Notes under the pieces: model-generated
What the model was told of the DNA's origin: nothing
The model's database searches: none
The model's input: only the letters and a program-made list of their open reading frames with translations
Part shown: positions 25,833 to 63,325 of the stretch, piece by piece
Numbering within the stretch: the first letter of the stretch is position 1
Layout: each line of letters begins with the position of its first letter
Origin: an uncultured Candidatus Rokubacteria bacterium
GTDB lineage: Bacteria > Methylomirabilota > Methylomirabilia > Rokubacteriales > CSP1-6
Length of the DNA stretch: 64,000 nt
Reading direction: 5' to 3'
Assembly: GCA_963771355.1 (NCBI GenBank)
Contig: CAVYTA010000007.1
Location: forward strand, 736,001 to 800,000
Program-made: the position numbers and the translations under genes

Positions 25833-25909
<77 letters not shown>

Positions 25910-25913
25910 ACAA

Positions 25914-25953
25914 ACACAAGGGGTTCGGCGCTCTCGCCGAGCCCCTTTTGTGT
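25914..25953 (+). terminator. Hairpin terminator after tRNA-fMet, repeated within the island
   Basis: ACACAAGGGGTTCGGCG..CGCCGAGCCCCTTTTGTGT. Confidence 0.75.
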
Positions 25954-25989
25954 CTCAGTTGGCCGACTTGTCCCGAAACTTGTCCCTTC

Positions 25990-26125
25990 GCGGGGCGACC
26001 ATGGCGCTGAGCGCCGGGTTCACGGCGCCGATCGTTGATGGCGGCCCTTGGCATGGAAGACGGAACGGACGATGCGGAGGTATGCGGCAGTGACGGATCA
26101 GACTCTCCGGGCGGCGGCGGAGCGT
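25990..26125 (+). pseudogene. Tyrosine recombinase C-terminal remnant
   Basis: Frameshifted GATMALSAGFTAPIV-MAALG-WKTERTMRRYAAVTDQTLRAAAE (box II W..RY); second copy at 40683-40773. Confidence 0.65.
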
Positions 26126-26457
26126 CAGGCACGCGCGCCCGAGCCGCCGACCCTCGGCCAAAGTCGAGACGCGAAACTCGCGGAGGACGTGCGCCCGGTC
26201 GGCGTTGGCGGCGGCGAAGAGTGTGTGGGGATCGGCCTCGGAGAGGGCCTCGCCCGAGTCGAAGCCGTGCATGAGGGCGAACGCGCCAAGCCGGAGGGTG
26301 AACCCATCGTCCAGGGCCCGCACCCGTCCGGCCCAGTCGTCGAAGCAGCGAGTTACTTCAGGCTGGTGAAGCATCCAATCGACGACGTCTCCATGCAGCC
26401 CCGAGCGGTCAGTGTCGAAGAAGAGGTCGGCGGGCTGGGGTGTCGCCTCGTCCTCCA

Positions 26458-26772
26458 TCACCGTTTCCCCCCGCGCGTCGCGCCCGGCGCGATCTGCCCC
26501 GAACCCGTCCGATTCCCCTTGGTGTCGTAGAGGTCGATCCGCCCGCCCTTGTCGATGGTCCCGTAGCCCGTCCGGTTGCTGGACTTGTCGTAGAAATCCA
26601 CGCGCTCGCCCTTTTTGTCGATGATGGCGGAGCCCGTCCTGTTGCTGGATTTGTCGAAGAGGTCAACGCGGGTCTCGGCGGGGCGCTCGTCGGCGAGGGC
26701 GGGGGCGGCGAGCGCAACGAGACCGAGCATCAGGCTCCCGGCGAGCGCGAGTCCCTGCCGTCCGTCAGTCAT
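26458..26772 (-). CDS. Small secreted protein with three D(L/F)(F/Y)DxxxNRTG repeats
   Basis: GGAGG RBS, signal peptide, internal repeats. Confidence 0.7.
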   Translation of the reverse strand: MTDGRQGLALAGSLMLGLVALAAPALADERPAETRVDLFDKSSNRTGSAIIDKKGERVDFYDKSSNRTGYGTIDKGGRIDLYDTKGNRTGSGQIAPGATRGGKR

Positions 26773-27026
26773 CTTGTGCCCTCCTGAGAGCATTATAGTC
26801 CCCGGCCAGCGTGGCCCGGCAGACGCGCCGGGCGTGATCAGATGGTCTCAAGGATCCTGCGCCCGAGCTTGCGATCTCTACCGGACGATGGAACCCTTGA
26901 CACAGGGTATATGTTCGTCGTGCTGAGGCGACCTTTGGAGGCCCGCGGTTTGGCTCACAGCTTTGGCTCACAGCTTAGATGGTATTGGGGGGCCCGACTC
27001 ATTCGGGGCGGTAGCGGAGCGGCAGC

Positions 27027-27767
27027 ATGCGCATGATGGCTATCTTGCTCTCCACGCTCTTCTTGCTCGCTGTCACGCATGCCGGCCCCCCCGCCGCACA
27101 GGACCGGCATTCGGCGCAGCGCGCGCGCATGGTGGCAGAAATCGCCGCAATGGCGCGCGAGACCGGCAGCGCTACCGGACGGCCGAGTTTCAGCCAGGCG
27201 GTGATGACAGTAATGGGAAGAGTCCCGCGCCATCGGTTCGTGCCTCCGCTCCAGCAGACTTTCGCTTACGAGAACCGAGCGCTCCCCATCGCTGAAGGGC
27301 AGACGATCTCGCAACCTTTCCTTGTCGCGCTGATGACGGACCTGCTTGATCCGAAGCCAAGCGACACCGTGCTGGAAGTCGGCACCGGCTCGGGCTATCA
27401 GGCCGCGGTCCTCGCGGAACTTGTGGCGAAGGTCTACACCATCGAGATCGTCGAGCCGCTCGGCAGGCGAGCGATGCAGCTCCTCGATGAGCTCGGCTAT
27501 CGTAATGTCGAGGTGCGCATCGGCGACGGCTACAATGGCTGGCCCGAAGCGGCGCCTTTCGATTCAATCGTTGTCACAGCGGCTCCGGCGGAGATCCCGA
27601 CCCCACTGATCGACCAGCTCAAGCGCGGCGGGCGAATGGTGATCCCGGGCGGAGCCTCTGACATGCAGTATCTTCTGCTCGTGGAAAAACGGCCGGATGG
27701 CACTACCACAACGAGGCGTACGCTCCCGGTGAGGTTCGTGCCCTTCACGAGAGATCGTGCGAAATAG
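27027..27767 (+). CDS. pcm: Protein-L-isoaspartate O-methyltransferase (with N-terminal signal-like segment)
   Basis: VPRHRF, GQTISQP, LEVGTGSGYQAA, APFDSIVVTAA, VRFVP. Confidence 0.92.
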   Translation: MRMMAILLSTLFLLAVTHAGPPAAQDRHSAQRARMVAEIAAMARETGSATGRPSFSQAVMTVMGRVPRHRFVPPLQQTFAYENRALPIAEGQTISQPFLVALMTDLLDPKPSDTVLEVGTGSGYQAAVLAELVAKVYTIEIVEPLGRRAMQLLDELGYRNVEVRIGDGYNGWPEAAPFDSIVVTAAPAEIPTPLIDQLKRGGRMVIPGGASDMQYLLLVEKRPDGTTTTRRTLPVRFVPFTRDRAK

Positions 27768-28092
27768 GGCCTTAAAGCCGATGACCTGCCCCCGGAGTTC
27801 GGTCACTCCCGTTGAGAGTCCGGCTGGCCCGACCCAGTCTAGAGTGCACCGCCAGATGTACCCACGGTGGTGAAGTGTAGCGGCTAGCTTCGAACCGTAC
27901 GGGGATAGCCAGCTGAGTTGCATCTGGCAGGGGTTGGGCATCTCCCGTCCTCTGCCTGCGGGACGCGGATCCCATCGGTGGGCGGTTCGACCCGGCGCCG
28001 ACCACTGCTTCCAAGGGCGTGGGCATCTCGCCGGTGGTCCTGCTACTAACGAGAATGCCCACCACGCCTTGCTCGTTCCTCGCCATGCGAGT

Positions 28093-29861: not shown

Positions 29862-30340
29862 GAGGATAGGTAGCATGAACGCCTCCGGCGGCGGTGGCCC
29901 CGTCTGTGGGCGCCGTCCCCGTGACATAAGGTGCCAGACCCGAACGCTGGCCGCCCCAGGAGCCGACGGCACAGCGCACATTAGCGGCCTGCTCGCGGGT
30001 CGAACGAGCCGACCCGAGTGAGCGGCATGCTATGCCAGACACACCGCCGCCGTCAACCGGCCACGGACCGGCCGGAGCCGCGGTGATGGCGCCTCGTGGG
30101 GCGTCCGCCGCGCCCCCGAGCAGATCGGATCAGGACTTAGTGGCATGCGGTTTTCGAGGTGGCGGTGCGCGTAAAGCTGCTGAGACATTTGGTGAAAACG
30201 TGGCCGTGACGAAACACGGGATTCAAATTCGAATCTCGAACTTGAACTCGAGGGACCTGTCGCCTGCAAGTGGTTGCTGGCCCCCGAAACTAAAAGAACA
30301 CAAGGGGTTAGCGATTACGTCGCTAGCCCCTTCGTGTTTT
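29862..30340 (-). mobile_element. Miniature non-autonomous ISCR/IS91-like element (both ends, transposase deleted)
   Basis: 29862-30136 resembles 38460-38742; 30180-30340 resembles 63140-63300. Confidence 0.7.
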
Positions 30341-30539
30341 CTGCTTCCATCTTGCTGTCCGGGAGGGGTTCATAACCCAAAGGTCGGTCCACCTGAGCCT
30401 AGGAAAATACAAGGTCTCGTTGCCACCGAGGACGGTGTCCGGGGTCACGATCAACCAGAGCCTGTCTCCAGAAGAAGCGTAGCGGCCCGGGCCGTCGCGG
30501 CCGGATCACAGTTCGTGCTGCTGGCGGTGCGGCGGGGGC

Positions 30540-30699: not shown

Positions 30700-33600
30700 G
30701 AAAGCCTTGTAGTGCTCTTTCCGCCTCATTCGTCCAGAACGGCATTTCCAGGGTTCGGTCAGCCTCGCCGCCTTGACGAGATGCTCCGGGCCTGCTCGCT
30801 TATTCTCATACGGCCGTATCCCTCGCCGATGCCGAGATGGCAGTGGGCTCCCAGGGGAGCCATCCCGAGTTCTGATGCGAGCTCCATGCCTTTGGGTAAT
30901 GTCCTTCGGCCGTCTCGGGATCCTGGCGTGCGAATGGATCTCCCCGAAAAGCCAGTGGGTCCATGCGACAGAGCCCGACTGGTTGTAATCCATGGCGGTC
31001 TGCAGTGCGAGATGAGCGACGCTGGTCGCCCGTTCGAGCTGGCCGGCGTGCAAATAAGCGTCGCTCAAGTGCACGACCCGCATGGTTTGATCGACCATTA
31101 GGTCCATGCCGCCGGCGGCGTCGACGGCCTCTTCAGGATCGCGATCGCGTCGGCTGCGCGCTTACTTAGCGTCTAGGCTCGACCGAGATAACCCGCGACT
31201 GTGACTCGCGCCATGTGAAGAACTCCCCTCTCGGACAACTGAAAGCGCGTTGCAGAGTCGAGATCGCCATGGCGAGATCGCCTTTGCGAAGATGCACGAT
31301 TCCGAGTGCCATGTAGGCATAGATCCGGCTGACGAGGTCGTCGACTCGCTTCCGCGATGCAGACCCCTTCGTTCCCACGCATAGTGGCGGGTCCGAACTC
31401 GCCAAGCTCTGCAAGTGACCACGAAAGCCATGTGCGAGCCGATACGGATGGCAAATTGGCCATTCCCAGGAAATTCGTGCGATCGGCATCGGTCGCGTCG
31501 ACGACCCAGTTCAGCAGCTCGATCGCCTGCGGTAATCGCCCCTCGCATGTCGCGCGCGGCCTGCGAACGAGTTTGCCAGTACCTCGGCCGGCGTCTCGCC
31601 AACCGGCTGCGCCGTAACCGAAGCCTGTTCGGCGGCGCCGATGGCGCGATCCTGTTGGCCGATCGACCAGAAGTAGAGGGCCTTGAATGTAAAGACGCGC
31701 GCCAGGCGAGCCTGGTCGTTCAGTGTGGTGGCGATCGCTTCCGCTTCGTGCAGCAACTCGAAACTGCGCTGAAACTCGCCAAGCGGGACAGCGAAGTCCG
31801 CAAACTGAAACGCAGATCGATCGCCTGCTGCATGACCGCGCCGCTTTGTGGCAGACGGTCGATCGCCGCCAGCGCCTCCGTAAACCTCGCGACGGCTTCG
31901 CGATGGGCGGACTTCGCCGCCGCCTTCGCGCCGGCCTGATAACAATATGAAACGGCTTTGTCCCACATCTCGCCGCGCAGGGCGTGATGCGACAGGCGTT
32001 CGATATGCTCCGAGGCGGTCCCAGTAGAGTTCTCGGTGGCCTCCAGGATTCGCGCATGCAAGGCCCGCCGGCGTTCGTGCAGCAGGCTTCCATACGCGAC
32101 CTCGTGGGTCAACGCATGCTTGAACGTGTACTCCGGCTCGGGGAAAAGCGCCGTCTGGTACAGGAACTCGGCGGATTGAAGATGAGTCAGTCCCTGCCGC
32201 AGTGCCTCGTCAGTCAGGCCGGCGATCGCGTGCAGCAGCTGAAACGGAACGCTCGTGCCAATGACCGTTGCGGCCTGAAGCAACTGCTTGTGCGCGGGCG
32301 AAAGGCGATCGATACGCGCGGCGATGACCGGCTGTACGGTCGAGGGCACCTGAATGGAGGTGAGCGGCCCGGTGAGGCGATAGGCGCCGGGCACGCCGAC
32401 GAGCGCTCCCAATTCCGCGAACGCACTGACGCTCTCTTCGAGAAGAACGGGTTACCCCCGGTCCGCTCCGCCAGCAGTTGCTTCAGCGGCTGAAGCGCCG
32501 CGTCATCTCCCAGAAGGGCATCGAGAAGGTGTCGGCGCTGTCGGGCTCGAGTGGATCGATCCGTAGCCGGGTATAGTACGGCCTGGAGTCCCAGCTCATG
32601 CATACTCGGGGCGATAGGTCACGAGCAGCAGCATGCGGGCCGGCGGGAGGTCTCGACGAAGCCCTTGAGGACCGCTTGAGTTTCGAATCGATACGTGAAG
32701 GTCCTCGAACACGACCAGTAGCGGCTGAACCTCGCTTTCCCGCAGGAGCAGCCGTTTCACGGCGTCAAGAGTTCTCTCCCGGCGTTATTGCGGGTCGAGC
32801 TTCTCCCACTCCGTATCGCTGAACGGCGTGTCAAGCAACGCAAGGAGCGCCGCGACGGAAGAATTCAGCGATTCGTCCAGGGCGAAGAGCTTGTCGTGAC
32901 CTTCTCCCGAATGGCGCGATGATCGTCGCGTTCCTGGATCTCGAAGTAGGTCTTGAGCAGGTCGATCACGGGAAGGTACGCGGTCGCTTTCCCGTAGGAA
33001 TGGATCCGCTTTCGAGATGAGCCAGGATTCGCGCGACAGGGAACGCGCAAATTCGTAAAACACGCGCGATTTTCCGACGCCGGGCTCGCCGACTAGGGCG
33101 ACGATCTGGCCATGGCCTGCCGCGGCCTGCTGCCACGCCATGCGCAGCTGGTCGAGCTCGGCATTGCGTCCCACGAATCGGGTCAGGCCCCGGCTCGCCG
33201 CAGCTTGCAGCCGCGTGCGCGCCGCCTGTGCGCCGATGAGCTCGTAGGCTTCGACGGCCTCGCTCAGGCCCTTTACGTGGATTTGCCGAGCGCTTGACCT
33301 GGACATACCCCTCGACCAGGCGCAGCGTAGAGCTGCTGATGAGAGTCGATCCCGGCATCGCCGTCTGTTCCATCCGCGCCGCGAGATGGGTGCTCTGCCC
33401 CACAACCGTATAGTCCATCCGCAGGTCGTTGCCGATCGTGCAGACCACGACTTCGCCAGAATCCAATCCCACCCTGATCTGGATCGGCACGCCGTGTGTG
33501 CGTGAATCTCTGCGCGTAGCGCTTCACCGCCTCCTGCATCCTCAGCGCGGCGTAGCACGCGCGAATGCCGTGGTCCTCGTGGGCGAGGGGAGCTCCGAAA

Positions 33601-34023
33601 AGCGCCATGATGCCGTCGCCCAACACCTGGTTGACCGTGCCCTCATAGCGATGGACGGATTCCATCATCCGCTCCAGGACAGGGTTGAGAATATTACGCG
33701 CTTCCTCCGGGTCCCGGTCGGCGATGAAGTTCCATCGACCCCTTGATATCGGCGAACAGCACGGTAATCTGCTTGCGCTCGCCCTCCAGGGCGGCTTTGG
33801 ACGTGAAAATCGTCTCGGTGAGCCGCTGCCGGGTGTAGCGTTCCGATACGGGCCGCGTGCCGGGCAATTCCTGCGTCAACGGCCCACCGCAGACGTGGCA
33901 GGTGTCGTTGGCGGCAACATTGACCGTTCTGCAGGCCGGACAGCGGATCTCGAGGCGCGTGCCACATTCCCCGCAGAGTTTTCCGCCAGGTGGGTTTTCG
34001 TGCCGACAGTGCTGCGACCGCAT
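30700..34023 (-). pseudogene. Double-zinc-ribbon + class III adenylate/guanylate cyclase + AAA ATPase + TPR protein, frameshifted
   Basis: LEGERKQITVLFADIKGS, GDGIMALFGAP, GEPGVGKSR, FKHALTHEVAY. Confidence 0.85.
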
Positions 34024-38459: not shown

Positions 38460-40575
38460 GAGGATAGGCAACATCAACGCCCTCCGGCGGCGGGCGCCCC
38501 GCGCGTGGCCCCCGTCACCGTGACATAACCGCCCAGACTCGGACGCCGGCCGCCCCAGGAGCCGATGGCACAGCGCACATTAGCGGCCTCCTCGCCGATC
38601 GGCGAGCCGACCCGGGTGAGCGGCATGCTAGGCCAGACACACCGCCGCCGTCAATCGGCCGGGACCGGCCGGATCAGCACGGATGTCACCTCGCGGCGCC
38701 GGCACGCGGCGTCCGCCGCGCCCCCGAGCCGATCCGATCAGGACGCGGCGGCGCCGGACTCGGGTGGGGCGGGGCCGGGACTCTGCCCTGAGGGGCCGAT
38801 CCCCAGGTGCGCGAGGATCTTCCGGATGACGGCGGGATCGTGCAGCGTGGCGATCAGGCGCAGCCGGCCCCCACAATGGGGACACGCCAGAACATCAATG
38901 GCGAACGCCCGGTGCATCAGCGCCGCCCAGCTCCAGGCGCGCGGACTGCGGTCTTCACCCCCGTGTCCTCCGGACCTGCGGCCCGCGGCGCCGTCAAGGC
39001 CGTGGGCTCGGGCACCACGCGTCCGTACGCGACCACGCGCGCGCGCCAGCGGGCACGCGCGGCCAACAGGCCATGGCAGATCAGCAGGTTCGTTTCCGGC
39101 CGCGGCGTCATCGCCGCCAGACCGCTCCAGCAACTCCAGCGGCTCGAACACCAGCTCGCGCGTGCCGTCGTGCCACGCCGTCTTCAGCTCCAGCGCGATG
39201 CGGCCGTCGCTCCGCAGCCGCAGGCGCTCCTGCGCGAAGGGCGGACGCAAGATATATCTGCACAGCCGCTCCAGCCCCGCCCGATCGTTCGCCGACACCC
39301 ACACGTTGGCGTGCAGATCGAAGCCCTCCAGGTGCGCCTGCCGCGGCCCGCGCGACGTCACGGTCGCCGTGTCGCGCGCGTCGCCGAGCCGCCGCACCCG
39401 CGCCCCCGCGCGGGGGCCCAGCGCCACCCGCCCCTGCACCGAGGCGCCCGACGATCCCCGCCAGCACGGGGGACTCGTCCGCGAGCCGATCCGCCGGCCC
39501 CGTCGCGTCGTCGGCCGGGCTCCAGGCCGCGGCGCACCAGCAGCCGTTGCACCCGGTGGCGGATCGTCGCCAGCGCCGCCGCGACCTCGGCGTCGCTCGG
39601 CCCCGGCGCCGGATGAAACACCAGCGCGCCCCCGGGCGCTTCGGTGAACACCCCGTCCAGCACGAGGGTGTGAAAATGCACGTTCGCGTTCAACGCCGCC
39701 GCCCGCGCGCTGCATCGCCGTGACCATGCCGGTCTGCCCACCGGCGATGCCGCGCGCGCGCGCGCCGCGCCGGTACACGTCGAGCAGCACGCGCGTGTAC
39801 ACCCGCAGCACCGCGCGGCTCAGCCCGTGATTCCACGCCATCTGGTAGCGCAGCCGATACGGCACCGTCAGCACCCACTGCCGCACCGGCACCCACGGCA
39901 GCACCGCGTCCACCAGATGCGCCGCGCGCTCCGTCATCCGCCGGCCCCCGCAGCTCGGACACCACCCCCGCCCTTTGCACGAAAACGGCACCAGGTGCTC
40001 GCGCGCGCAGCCCTCGCACCGAAACCGCGCCACGCCGGCCTCGAACACGCCGCACGGCAGGAACTCCCGGAACTCGCGCTCGACGAACTGCGGCAGGCCC
40101 GCGCCGTCGCCGGCCTCCGCCACCGCGCCCAGGAAGGCCTCCAGATGCTCGGCGATGACCTGATGGAGCACGGTGTGCTCGGCGTCTCGCGGGGCCGGTA
40201 GACCGCTCGCGGGAAGGCCATGGCCCCCAGGTGCGGTCAGGGCGCCGACCGGGACAATGCTGAGAGATTGATACACCGAATAGGGGGGGGATGGCGGCGG
40301 CCGAACCGCTGCCGGCGGTGCGTTTACGGTCCGGAACGGTGGGGAGGGCAACCTCGCGCGCGGCGACACGTGGTGTGACCCGGGGAGGGCGGTGGTCTGG
40401 GTGTCCATGGTCTGGCTGGAGCTGGATGGTCCTCCTCGCCTCCAGAGCACATCGAGACTTCTGGGGGAGCCGAGGGAGTGCGCAGGGAACGTCACGGACG
40501 GATTTAGATCGGGATCTCGAGAGCAGAAGCTCAGCGACCTGTTCGCCGGCAAGTGGTTGCGGGCCCCCGCAACCA
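38460..40575 (-). mobile_element. ISCR/IS91-family rolling-circle element, copy 1
   Basis: oriIS-like end ...GCGTTGATGTTGCCTATCCTC downstream of the transposase; upstream end runs into the att-like palindrome. Confidence 0.85.
38738..40221 (-). pseudogene. ISCR/IS91 HUH transposase, frameshifted
   Basis: Zn domain [36 protein letters not shown]. Confidence 0.88.
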
Positions 40576-40652
40576 ACAAACACAAGGGGTTCGGCGCTCT
40601 CGCCGAGCCCCTTTCGTGTCTCAGTTAGCCGACTTGTCCCGAAACTTGTCCC
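40554..40652 (+). repeat. att-like junction: TGGTTGCGGGCCCCCGCAACCA palindrome + tRNA terminator + ACTTGTCCC x2
   Basis: Right part near-identical to 25899-25986. Confidence 0.85.
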
Positions 40653-41158
40653 TCGCCGAAGCCTCTCTCGGCCCTACAACACCCACGGGGGCGACCATAG
40701 CGTCGGGTTCACGGCGCCGATCGTGATGGCGGATGGAAGACGGAACGGATGATGCGGAGGTTTGCGGCAGTGATTGGCAACGGCTGCGACTTCGGAGACT
40801 CCGACTGTTACAGGTTTTGACCAGCAACGGGCGAGGATTGTAGGGCGGCTTGCGTGATGGACAATACCTTCGCCTTCGCCTAGAGTTGCCTCAATGCGAA
40901 AGCTGGCGTTAGCCGGGGCCTTCGCTTGCCTTATCCATACGGCCTCCTCGGCGTTAGAGATTCAACCCTTTCCGCCAGCCCTCGCTGATCCCCACTTCCT
41001 GACGAGTCACAGCAGCAAGGTTTCACCGACAAAACAGTGCTGAAGGAAGCAAGACTCGACATTCTCGGCAGCACCTTCGAGGCCGAGTACCGCGTGTACA
41101 AGAACGATCCTTTTGTGGAGATTGTTCTTTCGAGCACTGGTAAAGACTACAAGAGCGA

Positions 41159-46015: not shown

Positions 46016-46105
46016 GCCCCCGCAACCAACAAACACAAGGGGTTCGGCGCTCTCGCCGAGCCCCTTTCGTGTTTCAGCTAGCCGACTTGTCCCAAAACTT
46101 GTCCC
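46016..46105 (+). repeat. tRNA-fMet 3' end + terminator + ACTTGTCCC x2 repeat (att-like junction)
   Basis: Near-identical to 25897-25986. Confidence 0.85.
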
Positions 46106-48066: not shown

Positions 48067-48079
48067 GAGGATAGGCAAC
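47828..48079. repeat. 126-bp tandem duplication ending in the oriIS terminus GGATAGGCAAC
   Basis: 47828-47953 is near-identical to 47954-48079. Confidence 0.9.
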
Positions 48080-48235
48080 ATGAACGCCCTCCGGCGGCGG
48101 GCGCCCCTGGCTTGGGTTCCCGTCACCGTGCTTGGGTCCCGTCCCCGTGACACAACCTGCCGGACTCGGACGCCAGCCGCCCCAGGAGCCGCCGGCACAG
48201 CTGGGCAGTCGCGCTGGCGGCGACAGATGCTAGGC
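48067..48235 (-). mobile_element. Partial oriIS-like end
   Basis: GAGGATAGGCAACATGAACGCCCTCCGGCGGCGGG..CCCCAGGAGCCG. Confidence 0.8.
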
Positions 48236-49474: not shown

Positions 49475-49489
49475 CGAGCGACGCTGCGG

Positions 49490-52400
49490 TCAGCTCGATC
49501 GCGGCCGCGTCGCCTCGGAGTCCAGCGTCGCGAGCTCCGCCTCGGCCTGCGACAGCCAGTGGCGCATGTCCATCTCGCGCAGCATCGCGTGCGCGGTGCT
49601 CAGGTGTTGCTGGGCCGCCTCGGTGCGCCCCTGCCGCCGGGCCAGGACGCCCCGCGCCAGTTCGGCACGGGCGAGGAGGGGGCGGAGTCCGAGCTCCTGC
49701 GCGATCGACGAGGCGGCTACGAGGTGGGCGTCGACGCTCTCCAGCTCACCGAGCAGGAGCAGGGCCCGTGTCTCATTGCCTCGCTCGCCGCGCTGGCGAG
49801 CCAGCTCGAGGCCGCGGGCGATGTGGTGCTGGGCCGTGGTCGCCGCGCCGTGGACCATGTAGCCTTCGGCGATAAAGACGTGCATGCGTGTCTCGTCGGA
49901 TCGCCGCCCTCCCGCGTCGATCCTGTCGAGCGCGTGCCGAGCAAGGGGATGCCCTCGTCGGCCCTCCCCAACGCGCAGTGGCAGTGCGCGAGCACCGCCC
50001 CCGCGGCGAGCGACATGGCAGCCAGGCCAGCCGCCGCTCTCATGCCCTCCAGCGCGGCTTCGACGGTGGCGATCGCGGAGGGGTAGTGGCCTCGCCGCGC
50101 GAGGATGAGGCCTTGCCCGAGTCGAGCGGCGAGCACGGTCGGAGGATGGTCGATGGACTCGGCGAGCCGGATGGCCTCGTGAACCGTCTCGAATGCACCG
50201 TCGAAGTCGCCTAGCTCCGCTCGACACGCGGCGAGTTCGTTCCGCGCGAACGATGCGGGGTAGAGCGTACGTCCGAGCCGCTGCCGCTCCAGGTCGCCCT
50301 GGAGCAGGGAGATCACGCCCGCGAAGAGATCGATGGCTTTCCGGGCGTCGCCCGCGCTCTGCAGCACTATGCCCAGGTTCACGCCAGCATGGATCCGGTG
50401 CTCCCGCAACCCCTTTGACTGCGCCAGCGCCAGGGCCCGCTCGCCGGTCTCCCGCGCGCGGGGCAGCTCACCGGAGAACCAGAGCGCGTTCGTCTGGTTT
50501 GCCAGCACCCGCACCAGGCGCTCCTCGTTGCCGAGCCGCTCGGCGAGGCTGCGCGCGATCTCCATGTGCTGCGCGAACGCGTCGCGCTCGTTCAGGGAGA
50601 AGAGGGCCGCGCCGATCAGGCACCGCACCTCGATGGTATGGGCGACGGTGTCCGGGGTCTGTGGCAGCCGTCCGAACGCGTCGATGGCGGTCTCGAAGTA
50701 CGCCTTCTGGACCTGGGGCGGCGCCGACCGGTCACCGGCCCGGATGCCAGCGCGGGTACCGTAGAGGGCGGCCTTGTCCCAGTGCTCCCCGCGCACGGCA
50801 TGGTGGCGAGCCGCTCGACGTGCTCGGCCAGCCGGTCGGCATGCAGTCGCTCGATGGCCGCCACGATCCGGGCGTGGAGCTCCCGCGGCGCTCACGGAGC
50901 ACGCTCCCGTAGGCGACCTCGTGCGTCAGGGCGTGCTTGAACGTGTACTCCGCCTCCGGGAACAAGCGCGTCTCGTAGAGGAACTCGGCGGCCTGCAGCC
51001 GCGCGAGCCCTCGGCGGAGAGCGTCGTCCGACACGTCCGCGATGGCGGCCAGCAGCGTCGAGCGGGACGTCCTTGCCGATCACGGCGGCCGACTGGAGCA
51101 GGCGCTTGTCCTCGGGCGACAGCCGGTCGATGCGCGCGGCGAGGATCGCCTGGACGGTGGCCGGGACCTGGATCGCCCGGCAACGGTCGCGCCAGGCGAT
51201 AGGCGCCGCGCTCGCCCGACCAGCGCCCTCGTCTCGACCAGCGTCCGCACGCTCTCCTCCAGGAAGAACGGATTGCCCTCCGTCCGCTCGATCAAGCAGC
51301 GCGCTTCAGCGGGCCGAGGCTCGCATCCTCGCCGAGCAGCGCGTCGAGCAGCTCCTCCGCGCTCTCGGGCGGCAGCGGGTCGAGCCGGAGCTGCGGGTAG
51401 TACGGTCTTGCTGCCCCAGCGGTGCTCGTACTCCGGCCGGTAGTTCACCAGCAGCAGGAGCCGCGCCGCCGGGAGGCTCTCGACCAGGCGTCGAGGCAGC
51501 GCCTGCGTCTCGGAGTCGATCCAGTGCAGGTCCTCGAAGACCAGCAGCAGCGGCTGCACCTGGCTCTCCCGCAGCAGGAGCCGCTTGAGCGCGTCGAGCG
51601 TCCGCTGGCGGCGCTGGGCGGGGTCGAGCGCCGCGCCACCGGGATCGTCGACCGGCACGTCCAGGAGCGCGAGGAGCGCGGGCAGCGCCGGCTCCAGGGC
51701 CGGTCGAGCGTCAGGAGCTTGCCCGTCACCTTCTCGCGGATCTCGCGCGCGTCGTCGCGGTCGCTCGATCCGGAAGTAGCCCTTGAGCAGCTCGATCACC
51801 GGCAGGTAGCACGTGGCCTTGCCGTACGAGACCGCGCCCGCCTCGAGCACGAGCCAGCCGTGCGATGCGGTGGGAGTGGATGAGCTCCCAGACCAGGCGC
51901 GACTTGCCCGACCCCCGGCTCGCCGACGACCGCGACGACCTGGCCGTGCCCGTCGCCGCGCCTGGTCGAGCGCGCGGTCGCAGCTGCGTCGAGCTCGCGC
52001 GTCGCGCCCGACGAACCGGGTCAGGCCGCGGGCCGCCGCGGCCTGCAGGCGCGTGCGCGCCGCGCCCGCCCCGGTCAGCTCGTAGACCTCGACGGGCTCG
52101 GCCAGCCCCTTGACCGGCACCGGCCCGAGCGGCTCTCACCTCGACGTAGCCCTCGGCCAGCGCCAGGGTCGTCGGCGGTCAGAGCGATCGCGCCGGGCAT
52201 CGGCAGCTGCTCCATGCGGGCGGCCAGGTGGGTGGTCTGGCCGACGGCGGTGTAGTCCATGTGCAGGTCGCTGCCGATCGCGCGCACGACCACCTCGCCG
52301 GTGTTCAGCCCGACCCGGATCTGCGACCGTCGACGCCGTGCTCGCGGCGCGACCGCCTCGGCGTAGCGCGCGACCGCCTCCTGCATGCCAGGGCGGCGTA

Positions 52401-52868
52401 GCAGGCGCGCACGGCGTGGTCCTCGTGGGCGAGCGGCGCGCCGAAGAGCGCCATGATGCCGTCGCCCATCACCTGGTTCACGGTGCCCTCGTAGCGGTGG
52501 ACGGCGTCCATCATGAGCTCGAGGACGGGATCGAGGAGCGTGCGGCGTCCTCGGGGTCGCGGTCGGCGAGCAGCTCCATCGAGCCCTCGAGGTCGGCGAA
52601 CAGGACGGTGACCTGCTTGCGCTCGCCCTCGAGCGCGGCCTTCGAGGTGAGGATCCGCTCGGCGAGGTGCCGGGCGTGTAGGTCGCGGGGCGCGGCGCGC
52701 GGCGGCAGCCGCGGCCACCGGGTGCGCACACGCCGAGCAGAACTTCGCCGCGGGGGCGAGCGGCGCGCCGCAGCTCGCGCACCGGGCCTCCAGGGGCGCG
52801 GCGCACTCGTGGCAGAACCTGGCTCCGGGCGGCGTGGCCGTCCGACATCGCGGGCACTGGATGGTCAT
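49490..52868 (-). pseudogene. Second zinc-ribbon/adenylate cyclase/AAA/TPR protein, frameshifted
   Basis: CPRC..FCHEC..CASC..FCSAC, GERKQVTVLFAD, FEDLHWID, FKHALTHEVAY. Confidence 0.85.
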
Positions 52869-52996
52869 GTGAGCGGCTCGATGTTTGGGTTAGCCGATAA
52901 TGCGGCCGCCGTCAATTCGCCGAGCCCGCCGGCGCCGCGGGGGTCGGCGACGGCGGCCAGGTCTCCTGCCGGGTAGCACCCGGTGGCCCTCGCGCG

Positions 52997-53354: not shown

Positions 53355-53477
53355 GAGGATAGGCAACATCAACGCCCTCCGGCGGCGGGCACCCGGGGGT
53401 CCGCACGGCGTGGGTCCCGTCCCCGTGACATAACCTGCCAGACCCGGACGCTGGCCGCCCCAGGAGCCGACGGCACC
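53355..53477 (-). mobile_element. Partial oriIS-like end
   Basis: GAGGATAGGCAACATCAACGCCCTCCGG..CCCCAGGAGCCG. Confidence 0.8.
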
Positions 53478-53490
53478 AGCGGGGCCCTCG

Positions 53491-53757: not shown

Positions 53758-54209
53758 ATGTTCTGTTCCTCCTGCGGCCGATGATCGCCCAGATTCGATA
53801 GCCGCACAAGGGCGAGATCCAGCCGGCTGCCAGTTTGGTTCCAAGCAAGAGTGCATCCCCGCCTCGTTTTCCAGCAATCCTGGGACTTCACCTGCCAGTC
53901 TGCTACCTGCTACCAAACTGCTACCCAAAGGCCCCCGTCAGCCCTCCCGCAGGGTTACGCCCCGGCCGCGGATTCCAGACCCTCCTCTCGCGGGAATGCT
54001 TCGTCGCGGCGGCTCGTCGAAGGATAGTCCCGAACGCGCCGGCCGGTTGACGGCGGCGATGTGTCCGGCATAGCATGTCCCTCACTCGGCGGCTCGCTCG
54101 ACGTGTGAAAAGGCCGTTGGAGTCCAAGATGATCCGCCTCGACACGCGCGCACGGGCGTCCGCGCTCGTACTACTCCTGTGTTCATGCGTCACACCGAAG
54201 GAGACTTCT

Positions 54210-54884: not shown

Positions 54885-55153
54885 GCTCGGTACAACGAGT
54901 GTTCGGCGTGGTGGTCGGGCGCATTCGAGGCCACGTCGTCGAGAGTTTGTGGGCACGCTGGCCGCCGACGAGGTTCGGAAGCGGTACCTCGATCGGTACG
55001 TTGGCCACGTTTTTCCTGCTGGTGCACGGAACCCGATCAGGTACCTGAACCTTCGCAAGAAGCCCGCTAAGCGCACGCTGCGCGCTAGAGCGGATCGCTA
55101 GCTCGCATGCATCCGCCCCAGCCGCCCGAGGTCGCGCTGGGGGCCCTCTTCAA

Positions 55154-55213
55154 GAGGATAGGCAACATCAACGCCCCCCGGCGGCGGGCACCCCACGCGT
55201 GGTCCCCGTCCCA
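55154..55213 (-). mobile_element. Short oriIS-like end
   Basis: GAGGATAGGCAACATCAACGCCCCCCGGCGGCGGGCACCCCACGCGTGG. Confidence 0.75.
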
Positions 55214-57704
55214 CCGGCGCCACGAAGCGCCTGGCGCGCTGTCGCCAGGAACTCCGGTTCGGTGGTGCTCGATTGCAGGAGGCGGCGGTAGATCGCTTCC
55301 GCAGCGAGGCGGTCGCCGCGCGCGACCAGGCACTGCACCGCGCCCACCAGTGCGCGGGGCTCGGCCGGTGAGCCCGGGGTCAGGTACGCCGAGGTCAAAT
55401 ACATGTCGAGCGCGTCTTCATGTTGACCCGCGCCGCGGAGTATCTCTGCGACGCGGTACGCCGCCTCGCCGCTCGTCTCCCGGTCTTGGGTTCGCGCGAG
55501 ACCGTTCGCAGGTAGGAGCTTTCGGTAAACGGCCACGGCCTCGTTCAACGCGCGCAGAGCGGTCAGGGAACTGCCGGCGCCGAGCAGCGCCAGCCGCGCC
55601 CATCTCGAGCCTTCTGCGACATATGCTGCCGTCATGTACCACTCGACCGCGTCCGCGTGCAGTCCCTCGGCGTTCAAGGTTCGACCGAGGCGGTACGCAG
55701 CCTCCGCCGCAACCTCGCCATCGGTCTGGGCGACCACGCCGTAGCAGGAGGGGTGGCATCCGGTCCACTTCCCCGAAGTCCTCGAGAAGCCGAGCGTGCG
55801 AGAGCAGGCTCTGCGTTGATCGCTCGATGCGAGGATAGTCCCGGAGCACCCGGTCGTAGGCGGCGAGCGCCTCCCGGCGGCGGCCGCCCGTCTCGTCCAT
55901 CTGGGCGAGCAGGAGCAACGCGCGCGGTGCGGCGTCGCCGCCAGCAGCCGCCGCCTGCTCGAGCTGGGCACGAGCCTGAACCGTCGCGCCCGTTCGGAAC
56001 AGGGCCTCGGCGAACTCCACCTGCTCGCTCCGACCCATCGGCGTACCGGGGTAACGCGCGACCAGCTTTTCATAGGCCCGGCGTGCGATCGGCCATTGTC
56101 CGGTGGAAGCCGACGCTGCGGCCACCCGGGCCAGAAGCACGGGAGCCGCTGGATAGGAGGGAAAGTCATCGACGAGCCGGCCAGCCAGCGCGTCCACGCT
56201 CACGTCGGACCAGCCGCGGTTCGCTGCTGCGAGCAGCACGAAGCCGTGAAGCAGGTACGGGGTGCGCTCGCGTTCTTGCCCCAGCAAGCGGGTGGTGAAC
56301 GACTCGAGAGGCTCGGTACCACTCGCCCGGACGCCTCCACCAGCGCCGTGGCCCCACGACGCATTACGCGGCGGTTCGTCCAGACCCCCTTCGGCTCCCG
56401 GCACCGCGAGCGCCGCGCTCAGTCTCGCACTCGCGTCGATGACCAGAGGCTCGCTCGACTGAACCAGCACGTCGAGCTCGCGCACCGCTTCATCCTCGTG
56501 GTCTCGGCGGAGCGCGAGAACGGATCGGCTCAATCTCGCGATCCCAGCGTGCAGCGTCGATGGATACTGCGCGATGAGCCGGTGGAACAGGGCGTGAGCC
56601 GCCACCGTGTCGCCCCCCTGGCTTGCCACCTCCGCGGCGAGCACGCACGCGAGGGGAGCGCGAGCATCGGCCGGAAACTTGTCGGCGACCCCGGTCCACG
56701 ATCGTCGGGCGCGGGCGCGATCACCAAGCCGAAACTCTGCCCAACCCAGTGCCATGGCGGCGCCAGGGGTTTCCGGTGCCTTTTCGTGCCTCGACAGAAA
56801 TTCCCGGTAGCGAGCGGCGGCCTGGCCGTACGAACGCATTCCATACGCGGCGTCGGCGGCGACGAGGAGAGCCGCTGACCGCACAGCCTCCGGCACACCG
56901 CCGCGGAGCAACATCTCGGCCCCGCTTTGAGCCTGGCGGAAGTTGCCTGTCGCGAGGTCCGCCTGGGCCTGGCTCAGTAATGTCTTCCTTGCCGCCAGAG
57001 CACCGGCCGCAGGGGAGGTAACGCCGTCTCCTCCTGTCGCCGTCGCGCCGTCATTACCGCCGCCGGGCGCACCGGCACCCGCACCACCGCCTCCGGCACT
57101 CCCCGGCGCCGGGCCCGAGCTACCGGCGGCGCCGCTACTAGCGCCAGAGCCACCGCCACTGCCGGACCCGCCCGCACTACCCGAGCCCCCGCCCGCGCCG
57201 GAGCCACCGCCACTGCCGGCGCTGCTGCCCCCCGCACCACTGCCGCCACCCGAGGCACCGCCGCCGCCCGAGCCACCGCCGCCGCCCGAGCCACCGCCGC
57301 CGCCCGAGCCACCGCCGCCGCCCGAGCCGCCACCGCCGCCCGCCACCGCCACCGCCCGAACCACCGCCACCGCCCGAGCCACCGCCACCGCCCGAGCCAC
57401 CGCCACCGCCCGAGCCACCGCCACCGCCCGAGCCACCGCCACCGCCCGAGCCACCGCCACCGCCCGAGCCGCCTCCCCCGCCTCCGCCACCCCCGCCGCC
57501 GCCTCCGCCACCCCCGCCGCCGCCTCCGCCACCCCCGCCGCCTTTGGCGATAAGGACGTGTCCGTGCGTGTCGCTGGTATCGCTCGGCGCCAGTCTGACC
57601 GTCGAATCGTCCTTCGGGGCAGCGGTGACGCGGGGAGCCGCTATCGGGATGGTCAAGCCGATCGCGAAGAGCGCCGCAAGGATGGCGCGGTAGATGGAGA
57701 CCAT
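55168..57704 (-). CDS. Secreted TPR-repeat protein with a long Gly-rich linker; frameshifts near 57340 and 55740
   Basis: Signal peptide MVSIYRAILAALF, Gly run, TPR-like YP.S/TP motifs. Confidence 0.7.
57250..57545. repeat. 18-bp tandem repeats encoding (GGGGGS)n and poly-Gly
   Basis: CCGAGCCACCGCCACCGC and CCGAGCCACCGCCGCCGC arrays. Confidence 0.9.
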
Positions 57705-57979: not shown

Positions 57980-58096
57980 GAGGATAGGCAACATCAACGC
58001 CCTCCGGCGGCGGGCACCCTACGCGTGGCCCCCGTCCCCGTGACCTAACCGCCCAGACTCAGACGCCAGCCGCCCCAGGAGCCGCTGTCACAGCGA
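57980..58096 (-). mobile_element. Partial oriIS-like end
   Basis: Near-identical to 59549 and 61048 copies. Confidence 0.85.
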
Positions 58097-58101
58097 CCTT
58101 C

Positions 58102-59548: not shown

Positions 59549-59675
59549 GAGGATAGGCAACATCAACGCCCTCTGGCGGCGGGCACCCCACGCGTGGCCC
59601 CCGTCCCGTGACCTAACCGCCCAGACTCGGACGCCAGCCGCCCCAGGAGCCGCTGTCACAGCGTCCTCGCCGACC
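59549..59675 (-). mobile_element. Partial oriIS-like end
   Basis: Near-identical to 61048-61163. Confidence 0.85.
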
Positions 59676-60043
59676 GCTCGCAGTTCTTCAAGGATCTCAG
59701 CGCCCCGTTCTACGGCGCCAACCGGCCGGGGGCCAAGGTCTCACAAGGGCTGCGCGACTCCTTCTGGCTCCAGGGGATGCAGGCCGGGTTCAAGGGCGTC
59801 ATCGATTGCATCAAGGCCTTCTCGGAGACGAACTTCACCGAGGACCTCAAGAAGATCGACGTGCCGACCCTGATCCTGCACGGCGACGACGACCAGATCG
59901 TGCCAATCGGCGCCTCGGCCCTCCTTTCCGCCAAGCTGGTCAAGGCGAACATGCTGAAGGTCTACCCGGGCCTGCCCCACGGTATGTGCTCGACCCACAA
60001 GGACCAGGTCAACGCGGATCTTCTGGCCTTCCTGAAGGGGTAG
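59670..60043 (+). pseudogene. Non-heme chloroperoxidase/alpha-beta hydrolase, 3' half only
   Basis: [46 protein letters not shown]. Confidence 0.85.
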
Positions 60044-60138
60044 CTGGCACCATGATCTGGGGCATGTCGGGACCCCCGACGACGACGTCCGTCCGCTCAT
60101 CTTCCTGATGTCCGACGAGGACGTCACCCTCTCGCGGC

Positions 60139-61026
60139 TCAGAAGCGAAATGTCAGTCCCGTCGCGATGGTCTGCACGTCCTTGGCGTTGGTACCGTACT
60201 CGAGAAACAGGTCCCAGTGCCGGAACAACGTGACGGACCCGCCGATCGTGGCGTTCAGGGGATGAGTCGGCGCCTGCCGGGCCTCGAAGCTGACCTTCCC
60301 GACGTTCGGCACGGTCACGGTCGCGCTCGCCGTGCTCTCGGTACCCCAGTACATCCCGCCGAGCCAGAGGCGGACCGGGGCGTACAGGACCTTGCCGTTC
60401 CACCCGACCCGGATGGTCCCCACGAGCGCCTTGAAGCGATCGTCGAACCCGATATCGGTCTGCGTGTAGTTCACGTCGCCAAGAACGAAGAACTGGCGGT
60501 ACCCTCCCGCCAGGGTGACCCCGGCCCCTCCCACGAAGCCCTCCAGCTGACTCTTGCCCGACACATCGAAGGTCAGCGAGCCGGGCAGCGGGCCCGGCCG
60601 CGGCACCGTCACGGTGCCCCGCGTGGTGGTGTTGTTGATCACGGCGCCGACGAGGGCATAGACGTCGAGGAAGGGCAGCAGCCACGCATCGAACCGCAGC
60701 GCCGCCACGCTGGTGTGGCTGCGGGACCCGAGGCTCACGAACCGGCTCACGTCACGAAGGGGTGCGCCATTGAGGCCCAGCCGCACATCGGAGACGTCGA
60801 CATCCCGCTCGATGTAGTAGTAGACGGCGGAAAGCCCGAGCGGCAAGGGGAGCTCGTACCCGCGCTTCACGGCCTCGCCCGCGAAGAACGGGAGCGCGTG
60901 CGGCCATTGCCCTTCGTCCGTGGCTGCGATGGCGCCGGCGGCCGAGCGAGGCGGGTCCGCCGCCGCGGTGGGAGTTACGACGACCAGCACGAGAAGGAGC
61001 ACGATCGGGACGGGCGAGACGCGCAT
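60139..61026 (-). CDS. Putative outer-membrane beta-barrel protein
   Basis: Signal peptide, GYELPLPLG, DAWLLPFL.VY, C-terminal FRF. Confidence 0.7.
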   Translation of the reverse strand: MRVSPVPIVLLLVLVVVTPTAAADPPRSAAGAIAATDEGQWPHALPFFAGEAVKRGYELPLPLGLSAVYYYIERDVDVSDVRLGLNGAPLRDVSRFVSLGSRSHTSVAALRFDAWLLPFLDVYALVGAVINNTTTRGTVTVPRPGPLPGSLTFDVSGKSQLEGFVGGAGVTLAGGYRQFFVLGDVNYTQTDIGFDDRFKALVGTIRVGWNGKVLYAPVRLWLGGMYWGTESTASATVTVPNVGKVSFEARQAPTHPLNATIGGSVTLFRHWDLFLEYGTNAKDVQTIATGLTFRF

Positions 61027-61047
61027 GCCGGGGTCATCATTTCACGA

Positions 61048-63256
61048 GAGGATAGGCAACATCAACGCCCTCTGGCGGCGGGCACCCCACGCGTGGCCCC
61101 CGTCCCCGTGACCTAACCGCCCAGACTCGGACGCCAGCCGCCCCAGGAGCCGCTGTCACAGCGCACATTAGCGGCCTCCTTGCCGATCGAGCGAGCCGAC
61201 CCGGGTGAGCGACATGCTAGGCCAGACAGACGGCCGCCGTCAATCGACCGGTGGACCGGCCGAATCAGCACGAATGCCACCTCGCGGCGCCAGCACGACG
61301 GCGTCCGCCGCGCCCCCGAGCCGATCCGATCAGGACGCGGCGGCGTCGGACTCGGGAGGGGCGGGGCCGGGACTCTGCCCCGAGTGGCCGAGGGCGAGGT
61401 GCGCGAGGATCTTCCGGATGACCGCGGGATCGTGCAGCGTGGCGATCAGGCGTAGGCGGCCTACACAATGGGCACACGCCAGCACGTCGATGCCGAACGC
61501 CCGGTGCATCAGGGCCGCCCAGCTCCAGGCGCGCGGACTGGCGGTCTTCACCCCCGTGCCGTCCGGACCTGCGGCCAGCGGCGCCGTCGAGGCCGTGGGC
61601 TCGGGCACGGGCCGTCCATAGACGACCACTCGCGCGCGCCAGCGTGCGCGCGAGGCCAACACGCCATGGCAAATCAGCAAGTTGGTTTCGGGCCGCGGCG
61701 TCATCGCCGCCAACCGCTCCAGGAACTCCAGCGGCTCGAAGACCAACTCTCGTGTCCCGTCGTGCCACGCCCTCTTGAGCTCCAGCGCGACGCGGCCGTC
61801 GCCCCGCAGCCGCAGGCGCTCCTGCGCGAAGGGCGGACGCAAGACGTATCGACACAAACGCTCCACCCCCGCCCGATCGTTCGCCGGCACCCACACGTTG
61901 GCGTGCAGGTCGAAGCCCTCCAGGTGCGCCTGCCGCGGCCCGCGCGACGGCACGGCCGCCGTGTCGCGCGCCTCGCCGAGCCGCCGCACCCGCGCCCCCG
62001 CGCGCGAGCCCAGCGCCACCCGCCCCTGAACCGAGGCCCCGACGATCCCCGCCATTATGGGGGACTCGTCCGCGAGGGGATCTGCCGGCCCCGTCGCGTC
62101 GTCGCCGGGCTCCAGGCCCCGGCGCACGAGCAGCCGTTGCACCCGCTGGCGGATCGTCGCCAGCGCTGCCGCGACCTCGGCGTCGCTCGGTGCCGGCGCC
62201 GGCTGAAACGCCAGCGCGCCCCCGGGCGCTTCGGTGAACACTCCGTCCAGCACGAGGGTGTGAAAGTGCAGGTTCACGTTCAACCCGCTGCCTGCGCGCT
62301 GCATCACGGTGACGCTGCCGGTGCGTCCACCCGGCACGCCGCACTCCCGGGCGCCGCGCGCGTACACGTCGAGCAGCACGCGTGTGTACACCCGCAGCAC
62401 CGCGCGGCTCAGTCCGTGATTCCACGCCATCTGGTACCGGAGCCGATACGGCACCGTCAGGACCCACTGCCGCACCGGCACCCACGGCAACACCGCGTCC
62501 ACCAGATGCGCGGCGCGCTCCGTCATCCGCCGGCCACCGCAACTGGGGACACCACCCCCGCCCTTTACACGAAAACGGCACCAAATGCTCGCGCGCGCAG
62601 CCCTCGCACCGAAACCGCGCCACGCCGTGTTCCAACACGCCGCACGTCAGAAACTCCCGGAACTCGCGCTCGACGAACTGCGGCAGGCCCGCGCCGTCGC
62701 CGGTCTCCGCCACCGCGCGCAGGAAGACCTCCAGGTGCTCGGCGATGACCTGGTGGAGCACGGTGTGCTCGGCGTCGCGGGGCCGGTAGACCGCTCGCTG
62801 GAGGGCCATGGCCCCCAGGTGGGGTGACGCCGCCGACCGGGACAATGCTGAGAGAGTGATACACCGATCAGGGTGGGGATGGCGGCGGCCGAACCGCTGC
62901 CGGCGGTGCGTCTACGTTCCGGAACGGTCGGGAGGGCAGCCTCGCGCGCGCGGCGATCGCGTGGTGTGACCCGGGGAGGGCGGTGGTCTGTATGTCCATG
63001 GCGTCTGGCCGGAGCTGGATGGTCCTCCCCGCCTCAGAGCACATCGAACTCTGGGGTAGCCGAGGCAGTGCGCAGGGAACGTCGAGCGGCACATGTTCGG
63101 TGGCGTGCTGTTGTCGAGCTGGCGTGGACCGCACAGGTTCTGAGACATTTGGTGAACACGTGGTCGTGACTGAAACACGACGGATTTAGATCGGGATCTC
63201 GAAGCAGAAGCTCAGCGACCTGTTCGCCGGCAAGTGGTTGCGGGCCCCGCAACCGA
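61048..63256 (-). mobile_element. ISCR/IS91-family rolling-circle element, copy 2
   Basis: oriIS-like end at 61048, transposase, upstream region ending in the att-like palindrome. Confidence 0.88.
61330..62809 (-). CDS. ISCR/IS91 HUH transposase (single frameshift in a G-run near 62548)
   Basis: [49 protein letters not shown]. Confidence 0.88.
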
Positions 63257-63325
63257 CAAACACAAGGGGTCGGCGCTTCCGCCGAGCCCCATGTGTCGGC
63301 TAGCCGACTTGTCCCGAAACTTGTC
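63235..63325 (+). repeat. att-like junction (palindrome + terminator + ACTTGTC x2), diverged copy
   Basis: TGGTTGCGGGCCCCGCAACC..CACAAGGGGTCGGCG..GCCGAGCCCC. Confidence 0.8.

Follow-up and report, generated by a model that had tools for sequence, protein, structure and literature searches.

A 64,000-nucleotide (nt) stretch of the genome of an uncultured Candidatus Rokubacteria bacterium (contig CAVYTA010000007.1 of assembly GCA_963771355.1, positions 736,001 to 800,000; hereafter the window, 68% G+C) carries an array of modules beside its initiator tRNA gene (tRNA-fMet). Three of the joints in this array contain a palindrome that adjoins DNA of an IS91-family insertion sequence (IS). We consider it likely that these palindromes are hybrid attachment (att) joints left by elements encoding a large serine recombinase (LSR), and that the array is the decayed product of serial site-specific integration at tRNA-fMet. 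An earlier note on this DNA proposed tRNA-targeted rolling-circle elements; this is not supported, since the palindrome is independent of IS91 and belongs to LSRs.

Palindromic joints at the initiator tRNA gene

ARAGORN places an intact tRNA-Met(CAT) gene at 25833–25909 (plus strand), and it is the sole Rfam match in the window (RF00005, 64.3 bits). Its sequence has the hallmarks of an initiator: 5' CGCGGGG, a C1xA72 mismatch and an anticodon stem with three G-C pairs. Directly 3' of it lies a ~100-nt trailer block (25910–26014, plus strand; repeat family D9) that contains a terminator-like hairpin, AAGGGGTTCGGCGCTCTCGCCGAGCCCCTT, and two copies of ACTTGTCCC. We read this block as the right-hand side of the bacterial attachment site (attB), be it the native trailer or one borne by an island. 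The core common to all joints is the last 12 nt of the tRNA, CCCCCGCAACCA (25898–25909). Core and trailer recur together at 40564–40680 and 46017–46133 (83–93% identity over 121 nt, family D9) and at 63245–63325 (87–91%), and a degenerate trailer copy (~77%) occupies 30283–30345; in self-BLAST these repeats have E values of 1e-27 to 1e-63. ACTTGTC repeats are found at four sites and are missing at 30271. Every good trailer block is closed by two direct ACTTGTCCC repeats (25966–25986, 40634–40654, 46087–46107 and 63305–63325), and a related GACTTCACCC is present in the block variant of genomes G002 and G007.

At 40554 and 63235 the recurring copy is directly preceded by TGGTTGCGGG, giving the palindrome TGGTTGCGGG-CC-CCCGCAACCA, with 10 + 10 nt around CC. 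It is perfect at 40554–40575 (plus strand; DNA fold z = -3.1), where it would form the core of a hybrid att site. Two of the three window palindromes are mutated. The one that opens the putative hybrid joint at 63235–63325 (plus strand, trailer block included) is one centre C short, TGGTTGCGGG-C-CCCGCAACCG, and this joint is probably dead; at 30271–30345 (plus strand) TGGTTGCGGG has become TGGTTGCTGG, and the degenerate palindrome, TGGTTGCTGG CC CCCGAAACTA, with its degenerate trailer appears in alignment A2 as a dead hybrid joint. IS91-family DNA lies on the left of all three. At the two later joints it is separated from the palindrome by a spacer and a conserved arm (40278–40553, the last ~25 nt being CTGTTCGCCGGCAAG + TGGTTGCGGG, and 62866–63234, both plus strand), which comparisons and alignments of the arms suggest to be the side of the element's attachment site (attP) away from the LSR gene.

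The earlier note's description of repeats and palindromes next to IS91 DNA at tRNA-fMet is thus real: beyond the self-BLAST matches, the reversed palindrome pattern gave no match in 61 related genomes, against 10 for the true pattern. Two tRNA-fMet remnants had gone unnoticed. One, ATCCAGCCCCCGCAACCA (45132–45149, plus strand), is a 3' remnant with a different trailer, found by sequence comparison; its joint has a near-identical counterpart in G002 (L183), ~350 nt past the 3' end of another LSR gene. The other, TCATAACCCAAAGGTCG (30370–30386, plus strand), is part of the anticodon loop and the start of a 45–49-nt att repeat of tyrosine-integrase type. A further joint at 46000–46133 (plus strand; family D9, alignment A2) consists of a decayed T-arm-like stretch, CCCCCGCAACCA (46017–46028) and the trailer block; it has no palindrome, so it is attB-like or a tRNA-side relic. 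A weak ftsZ-DE match from Rfam at 40555–40614 (37 bits, cut-off 72) corresponds to two hairpins and was taken as chance. Elsewhere in the source genome (G000), two chimeric joints (C6:11195–11240 and C3:7379–7400) run from the left arm and centre into a reverse-complemented tRNA T-loop region (ATTTGAACCAGCGAC); they have no right arm and match neither simple hybrid type.

Could the repeats be an artefact of assembly or binning? The source assembly is of metagenome type (5.5 Mb in 8 contigs, 99.8% complete, 2.2% contamination), and a 1.9-kb stretch that begins in the tRNA anticodon loop (25865–27777, plus strand) is 99% identical to C5:997822–999733, near a contig end. With this exception, the copies differ by 7–23%, too much for assembly duplicates. 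G002 and G006 show this architecture as well, and 4 runs from 4 studies contain contigs that cover 40563–41800 with at most one difference; these are short Logan contigs that break at repeats, and none of the listed pieces spans a palindrome. An artefact is scarcely credible. The 99% duplicate either is another island joint or derives from a second strain present in the assembly. On C5 (C5:997415–999733) the copy directly follows a tyrosine-integrase fragment and starts in the anticodon loop, an arrangement like that at a classical tyrosine-integrase att repeat.

The palindrome and large serine recombinase genes

So, whose site is the palindrome? Public genomes, one per species, were scanned with the pattern GTGGTTGCGGG-N(0-3)-CCCGCAACC, which yielded at least 117 stretches; 80 loci (L042–L121), with record titles from many phyla, were fetched. 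Pfam was run on 252 of their 288 open reading frames (those of at least 170 amino acids; 36 shorter ones were dropped). At six loci (L059, L069, L073, L099, L108 and L118) the 3' end of a full-length LSR gene with Resolvase, Recombinase and Zn_ribbon_recom domains overlaps the palindrome, and at L083 the LSR is split by another IS. By tblastn with seven LSRs, an LSR or an LSR C-terminal remnant is present at 20 of the 80 loci, and the match ends 0–88 nt from the palindrome in 19 of these 20. The palindrome lies in the LSR reading frame, where it codes for ..VAG(A/P/T)RN(H/Q)... Most other loci have a conserved arm on one side and, on the other, a tRNA-like 10 nt, a trailer resembling a rho-independent terminator, and housekeeping genes, which is how a hybrid joint would look where a tRNA-fMet gene once stood. 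None of the 80 loci fetched has a tRNA gene. L059:846–2552 and L099:2468–4213 exemplify this widespread LSR family with a tRNA-fMet-based palindrome in its last codons. Perfect palindromes of 44 nt occur in L043, L049 and L099, and the centre dinucleotide varies (CC, GA, GC, CT, CA).

The association with IS91 does not hold wherever either partner occurs. An IS91 transposase lies within 2.5 kb of the palindrome at one of the 80 loci (L076), and none of seven full-length IS91 relatives (L002, L004, L005, L006, L007, L009 and L013; 47–64% amino acid identity) has the palindrome within 1.5 kb. Among 19 loci with transposase relatives from the 61 related genomes, it is found only in L012, from the same genus. 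Five public loci (L058, L061, L067, L071 and L079) share with the window only 60–120 nt beside the palindrome, with ordinary genes and no IS91 beyond. The palindrome is therefore independent of IS91, and the suggestion that this IS91 clade carries it is not supported. The earlier note named homologous IS copies without the palindrome as evidence that would speak against it; distant homologues are indeed of this kind, and close same-genus copies are not. Genomes G016 and G030 are unpublished, and L004 and one palindrome match rest on G016.

Comparison within the genus shows what the joints are made of. Contig C9 of G006 carries an intact LSR gene (Resolvase, Recombinase and Zn_ribbon_recom domains) whose protein ends in ..AVCLQVVAGAGFEPATFGL*; the final 14 codons, together with the stop, correspond in reverse complement to a 49-nt 3' fragment of tRNA-fMet. 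This fragment is the native half of the tRNA, now displaced; between it and the full tRNA lies an 8-kb island that carries a tyrosine integrase (PF00589). About 23.6 kb from the LSR, in the direction of the tRNA, come a piece of IS91, the arm and the palindrome, and then a trailer block that shares 84% identity with that of the window. By this layout, the block is the tRNA-side (attB) right half, and an LSR element has its far joint in the succession of IS, arm, palindrome and block.

The partners on either side change at the palindrome itself. In G006:C22 (L182; L076 is the same sequence and was counted once) after an IS copy and the palindrome comes, in place of the block, the remnant of an LSR C terminus (63 amino acids, 54%), so the right-hand partner switches exactly at the palindrome. 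Alignment A2 shows one left half that continues into the block in the window and in G006:C9 and into the LSR remnant in G006:C22, and one right half that continues from the tRNA body (25833, 46017), with the change falling within the palindrome; in G006:C9 it is the LSR that adjoins the tRNA body. The closest relative, G002 (92%), is homologous to the window up to precisely the last base of the tRNA, 25909, and has the LSR-side arm immediately beyond. We also considered the left arm as a reversed native tRNA trailer, given that G002 has CTTGCAGGCAGACAG after its tRNA, and rejected this: the G002 'trailer' is the LSR 3' coding end. The palindrome had already been taken for an att-type site in the earlier note, and the LSR genes that end in it, together with the change of partners, bear this out.

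Of 25 positions, 20 are mirror-symmetric between the window arm (CTGTTCGCCGGCAAGTGGTTGCGGG) and the arm on the LSR side in G006:C9 (CTGTTTGCCTACAGGTGGTTGCGGG), which gives a dyad-symmetric attP of ~52 bp, in keeping with the usual size of an LSR site (~50 bp; PMC12286644).

Probable serial integration and the association with IS91

The region from 25.9 to 63.3 kb, which extends past the window, would thus be a hotspot where integration at the initiator tRNA gene took place serially, with at least two kinds of recombinase element involved. Tyrosine-integrase islands would recombine in the anticodon loop and leave 45–49-nt tRNA repeats. LSR elements would carry the ~52-bp dyad-symmetric attP, centred on TGGTTGCGGG-CC-CCCGCAACCA, with one half inside the 3' end of the LSR gene and with a right arm equal to the last 10 nt of tRNA-fMet. 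Integration would fuse the LSR-side half with the tRNA body and the second half with the tRNA's final 10 nt and trailer. The joints at 30271, 40554 and 63235 would be of the second kind, each made of the non-LSR half of attP and the tRNA half of attB. The LSR lineage of this genus would have carried a 1.8-kb IS91-family element 276–369 nt from the non-LSR half of attP, which would place IS91 DNA on the left of each palindrome.

We infer the order of events, in which the modules would have been acquired separately by horizontal transfer and then decayed, with loss of the LSR genes and LSR-side joints. Regeneration of attB between LSR insertions is likewise our inference; it was probably achieved by tyrosine-integrase islands that brought a fresh tRNA 3' half and trailer. 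The IS copy at 61048–62865 is 97.5% identical to that in G006:C22, from another species of the genus, whereas the flanking core DNA of G000 and G006 is 82.5% identical, which argues for recent horizontal transfer and not duplication in situ. The earlier view that the array reflects site-specific recombination at the 3' end of tRNA-fMet is supported, as is the absence of the recombinase from the window, where Pfam and tblastn find no LSR. The further supposition that a recombinase is needed solely in trans is not supported, for the site belongs to LSRs whose own gene ends in the palindrome.

Recombination by an LSR at the palindromic site is predicted from sequence. LSR att sites are short, with imperfect dyad symmetry about a central dinucleotide, and exchange of half-sites forms hybrid joints. 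The likeness to elements such as phiC31, Bxb1 and A118 extends to ~50-bp att sites with such symmetry, hybrid joints formed by half-site exchange and, in the relatives, a recombinase with Resolvase, Recombinase and zinc-ribbon domains. The differences are that the target here is the 3' acceptor end of the initiator tRNA gene, that one half of attP lies within the last ~10 codons of the recombinase itself, and that the window has scars only and no recombinase. A search within a limited library of papers found no report of LSRs that target tRNA-fMet.

Several observations weigh against serial LSR integration. No LSR gene or remnant is detected in the 99.8%-complete source genome (PF00239, PF07508, tblastn), and no LSR-side joint (tRNA body and LSR arm) is left in the window, so three LSR insertions are deduced from one type of scar. 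An LSR coding remnant to the left of the window palindromes was sought and rejected: tblastn at E values up to 50 matches nothing beyond the ~10 residues for which the palindrome codes, with stop codons 15–20 codons upstream. LSRs normally do not use hybrid sites, which means that attB must be rebuilt for each repeated insertion. The ACTTGTCCC repeats and the truncated tyrosine-integrase remnant beyond the block are left unexplained by an LSR. All same-genus palindrome copies have IS-linked DNA on the left, so a functional link is possible. Finally, every module opens with core and block and closes with IS and palindrome, an arrangement that fits tandem insertion of circles at least as neatly.

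Such circles would consist of IS91 plus cargo, copied from oriIS through the palindrome and on into the block and the cargo genes, with an attP-like succession of arm, CC, core and block. They would form by rolling-circle or one-ended transposition and be integrated at tRNA-fMet by a recombinase supplied in trans, now recognisable as an LSR; the tRNA-side joint would stay attB-like, and units would stack beside the tRNA. We regard this as a doubtful alternative. It accounts for modules that each run from core and block to oriIS, IS, arm and palindrome, for the lack of distinct LSR-side joints and of any LSR in the genome, and for eight oriIS ends in one orientation over 31 kb. One-ended transposition in the IS91 family is also frequent according to PMC13181058 (1–14%, up to about half of events without Orf121), and PMC9376610 describes an ISCR2 unit moved by an integrase through an att site that precedes the transposase gene by 119 bp. 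Yet palindrome and arm occur without IS91 at 79 of the 80 public loci fetched, IS91 relatives lack the palindrome, the same joint in G006:C9 is the far end of an element with its own LSR, and both transposase genes in the window are broken. The short metagenome contigs, which do not reach across the repeats, reveal no circular joint.

A related idea, that in this soil lineage IS91 and the LSR half-site are a working pair, seems unlikely. One-ended copying from any of the numerous oriIS ends of like orientation would pass through the palindrome into neighbouring DNA and make att-bearing circles with new cargo, which an LSR from a resident or incoming element would stack at the initiator tRNA. 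If true, an HUH enzyme would work together with a serine recombinase as a gene-capture platform, comparable to the tyrosine-integrase/ISCR2 case. That case is GIsul2/CR2-sul2, where ISCR2 is mobilised by a genomic-island integrase through site-specific recombination and not by the HUH enzyme (PMC9376610). The two systems share an att site shortly upstream of an IS91/ISCR transposase gene (here the palindrome 276–369 nt from the IS end), an att-bounded unit (here core and block on both sides of the 30.3–40.6 kb module) and tandem units at one chromosomal attB. They differ in that the GIsul2 integrase is a tyrosine recombinase with the 3' end of guaA as attB, as opposed to an LSR and tRNA-fMet, and in that the IS91 link here is limited to one genus and the elements are dead.

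Serial LSR integration would explain an odd repeat architecture as ordinary, decayed and nested site-specific integration, leaving no case for a tRNA-seeking rolling-circle transposon. It also brings to light a widespread LSR family whose attP would rest on a nearly universal bacterial sequence, the 3' acceptor end of initiator tRNA, and overlaps the stop region of the enzyme's own gene. With this family, tRNA-gene integration hotspots would gain a second class of recombinase; if its LSRs are active, most bacteria would offer them a ready landing site, which makes the family interesting for genome engineering. The adjacency of IS91 would be the second natural case, after that of GIsul2/CR2-sul2, where one can put the question: do ISCR-type elements spread mainly by the recombinases of other elements?

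IS91 ends, integrase remnants and cargo

Genome-wide (5.5 Mb), the two near-complete IS91 copies are both in the window and are 91% identical to each other. Copy 1 proper (38460–40277, minus strand) has its oriIS end at 38460, a frame-broken tnpA and a probable terIS-side motif at 40255–40277; copy 2 proper occupies 61048–62865 (minus strand), and the zinc-finger and Y2 parts of its tnpA are in different frames. Pfam finds Zn_Tnp_IS91 (PF14319) and Y2_Tnp (PF04986) on the minus strand in 38741–40585 and in 61268–62845 / 61333–62526. Neither copy has an intact single-frame transposase gene: the zinc-finger and Y2 parts of copy 2 are 319 nt out of register, and the Y2 domain of copy 1 is divided between two frames, whereas the relatives have both domains in one continuous frame. 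With the genes broken, activity cannot be deduced.

The end on the 3' side of tnpA begins sharply at GAGGATAGGCAACAT (38460, 61048), and the oriIS boundary GAGGATAGG is sharp and common to eight window copies. Its first 60 nt hold two subterminal palindromes, GCCCTCCGGCGGCGGGC and CCACGCGTGG, and the terminus, ..CCTAT(C/G)C., is also found in relatives L003–L012. These features agree with the description of oriIS in PMC13181058: a distinct end downstream of tnpA, with subterminal palindromes and a conserved terminal motif. A motif GGTGTATCACTCTCTCAGCATTG (GGTGTATC..) immediately upstream of tnpA is kept in relatives at 47–64% protein identity, where unrelated host genes start within ~150 nt of it, and it is the probable terIS-side end of IS91 itself. 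It ends at 40277 and 62865, which makes the IS proper 1818 nt long and puts the palindrome 276 and 369 nt outside it. The earlier note took the left arm of the palindrome as the upstream end of the IS; IS91 DNA is indeed there, with the probable IS end 276/369 nt further in.

The placing of this end bears on another explanation, in which a local IS91 variant had the palindrome as its terIS hairpin and moved by one-ended transposition with a target preference for the 3' end of tRNA-fMet, with no site-specific recombinase. According to PMC13181058, terIS of the IS91 family has one subterminal palindrome beside the cleavage site; GTTC and CAAG stand directly left of the window palindromes, and deletion derivatives retain an ori part and a palindrome part. 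We find this very unlikely. The conserved probable terIS-side end lies 276–369 nt inside the palindrome, the deletion derivatives differ in their internal break points and so look like independent decay, and at 20 of the 80 loci LSR reading frames include the palindrome. Moreover, the IS91 target tetranucleotide adjoins oriIS and not terIS (PMC13181058). As to a CTTG/GTTC-type target adjoining oriIS, no clear rule emerges among the 13 genome copies examined, which have C at -4 in 9 of 13.

The eight oriIS ends of the window (29862, 38460, 48067, 53355, 55150, 57980, 59549 and 61048) share one orientation across 31 kb. The first belongs to an IS91-module deletion derivative (29862–30270, plus strand) made up of an oriIS part (29862–30136) and the palindrome-adjacent arm (30137–30270), as established by BLAST against IS copies 1 and 2 and C3 and by alignments A1 and A2. 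This and other minis, among them C3:7379–8022, break internally at different points and thus look like independent deletion derivatives. Five of the eight ends are solo stubs of 63–135 nt, identified by BLAST and alignment on the plus strand (48067–48201, 53355–53481, the shorter 55150–55212, 57980–58099 and 59549–59667), and four of the five have one inner boundary (..GGCACAGC, ~116 nt). Units from one ori to the next span 1.5–9.6 kb, with one or few genes each. Similar stubs occur in the islands of G002 and G006 and elsewhere in the source genome. The oriIS stub folds no better than shuffled sequences (z = 0.3). An inverted copy (86–92%) of a 50-nt segment from ~150 nt inside the oriIS region (30014–30062, 38612–38662) is present at 54039–54089, and a 126-nt unit occurs twice in tandem (98% identical) at 47827–48079, directly left of a solo stub.

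ISCR regions typically show solo oriIS ends and flank capture. With IS91, IS801, IS1294 and ISCR elements the window copies share the Zn_Tnp_IS91 and Y2_Tnp domains, a length of 1.8 kb, two subterminal oriIS palindromes and a ..CCTATCC end; they differ in their broken tnpA genes and in that the palindrome is not the IS terminus.

Traces of tyrosine integrases follow two of the trailer blocks. A frame-broken C-terminal remnant (GATMALSAGFTAPIV..WKTERTMRRYAAVTDQTL) lies at 25998–26107 (plus strand; tblastn with the integrase at C6:2723–3898), and comparison with this integrase suggests a second at ~40700–40781, within a stretch (40576–40781, plus strand) that opens with the family D9 block at 40576–40680. 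The ACTTGTCCC repeats of the block could be arm-type sites of the integrase whose remnant comes next. An SSV-type arrangement, with the integrase gene split by its own attP, would account for an integrase C terminus beyond the block but was rejected: the intact C6 integrase has no block-like insert. The 45–49-nt tRNA-fMet repeats are common in relatives, and in G006 a tyrosine integrase abuts one. Such 3' direct repeats, the integrase remnants and the decayed cargo resemble tandem tyrosine-integrase islands at tRNA genes; the repeats of these islands start in the anticodon loop, whereas the palindromic joints of the window share just the last 10–12 nt and would belong to another recombinase class.

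Many of the cargo genes are split. Two frame-broken paralogues with double-zinc-ribbon, adenylate-cyclase, AAA_16 and TPR domains lie at 31700–33850 and 49700–52870 and have more than 15 paralogues in the genome (66–86% identity). Within a minus-strand TPR reading frame (55421–57532), the stretch 57083–57578 contains 18-nt periodic repeats in 11 register-shifted copies.

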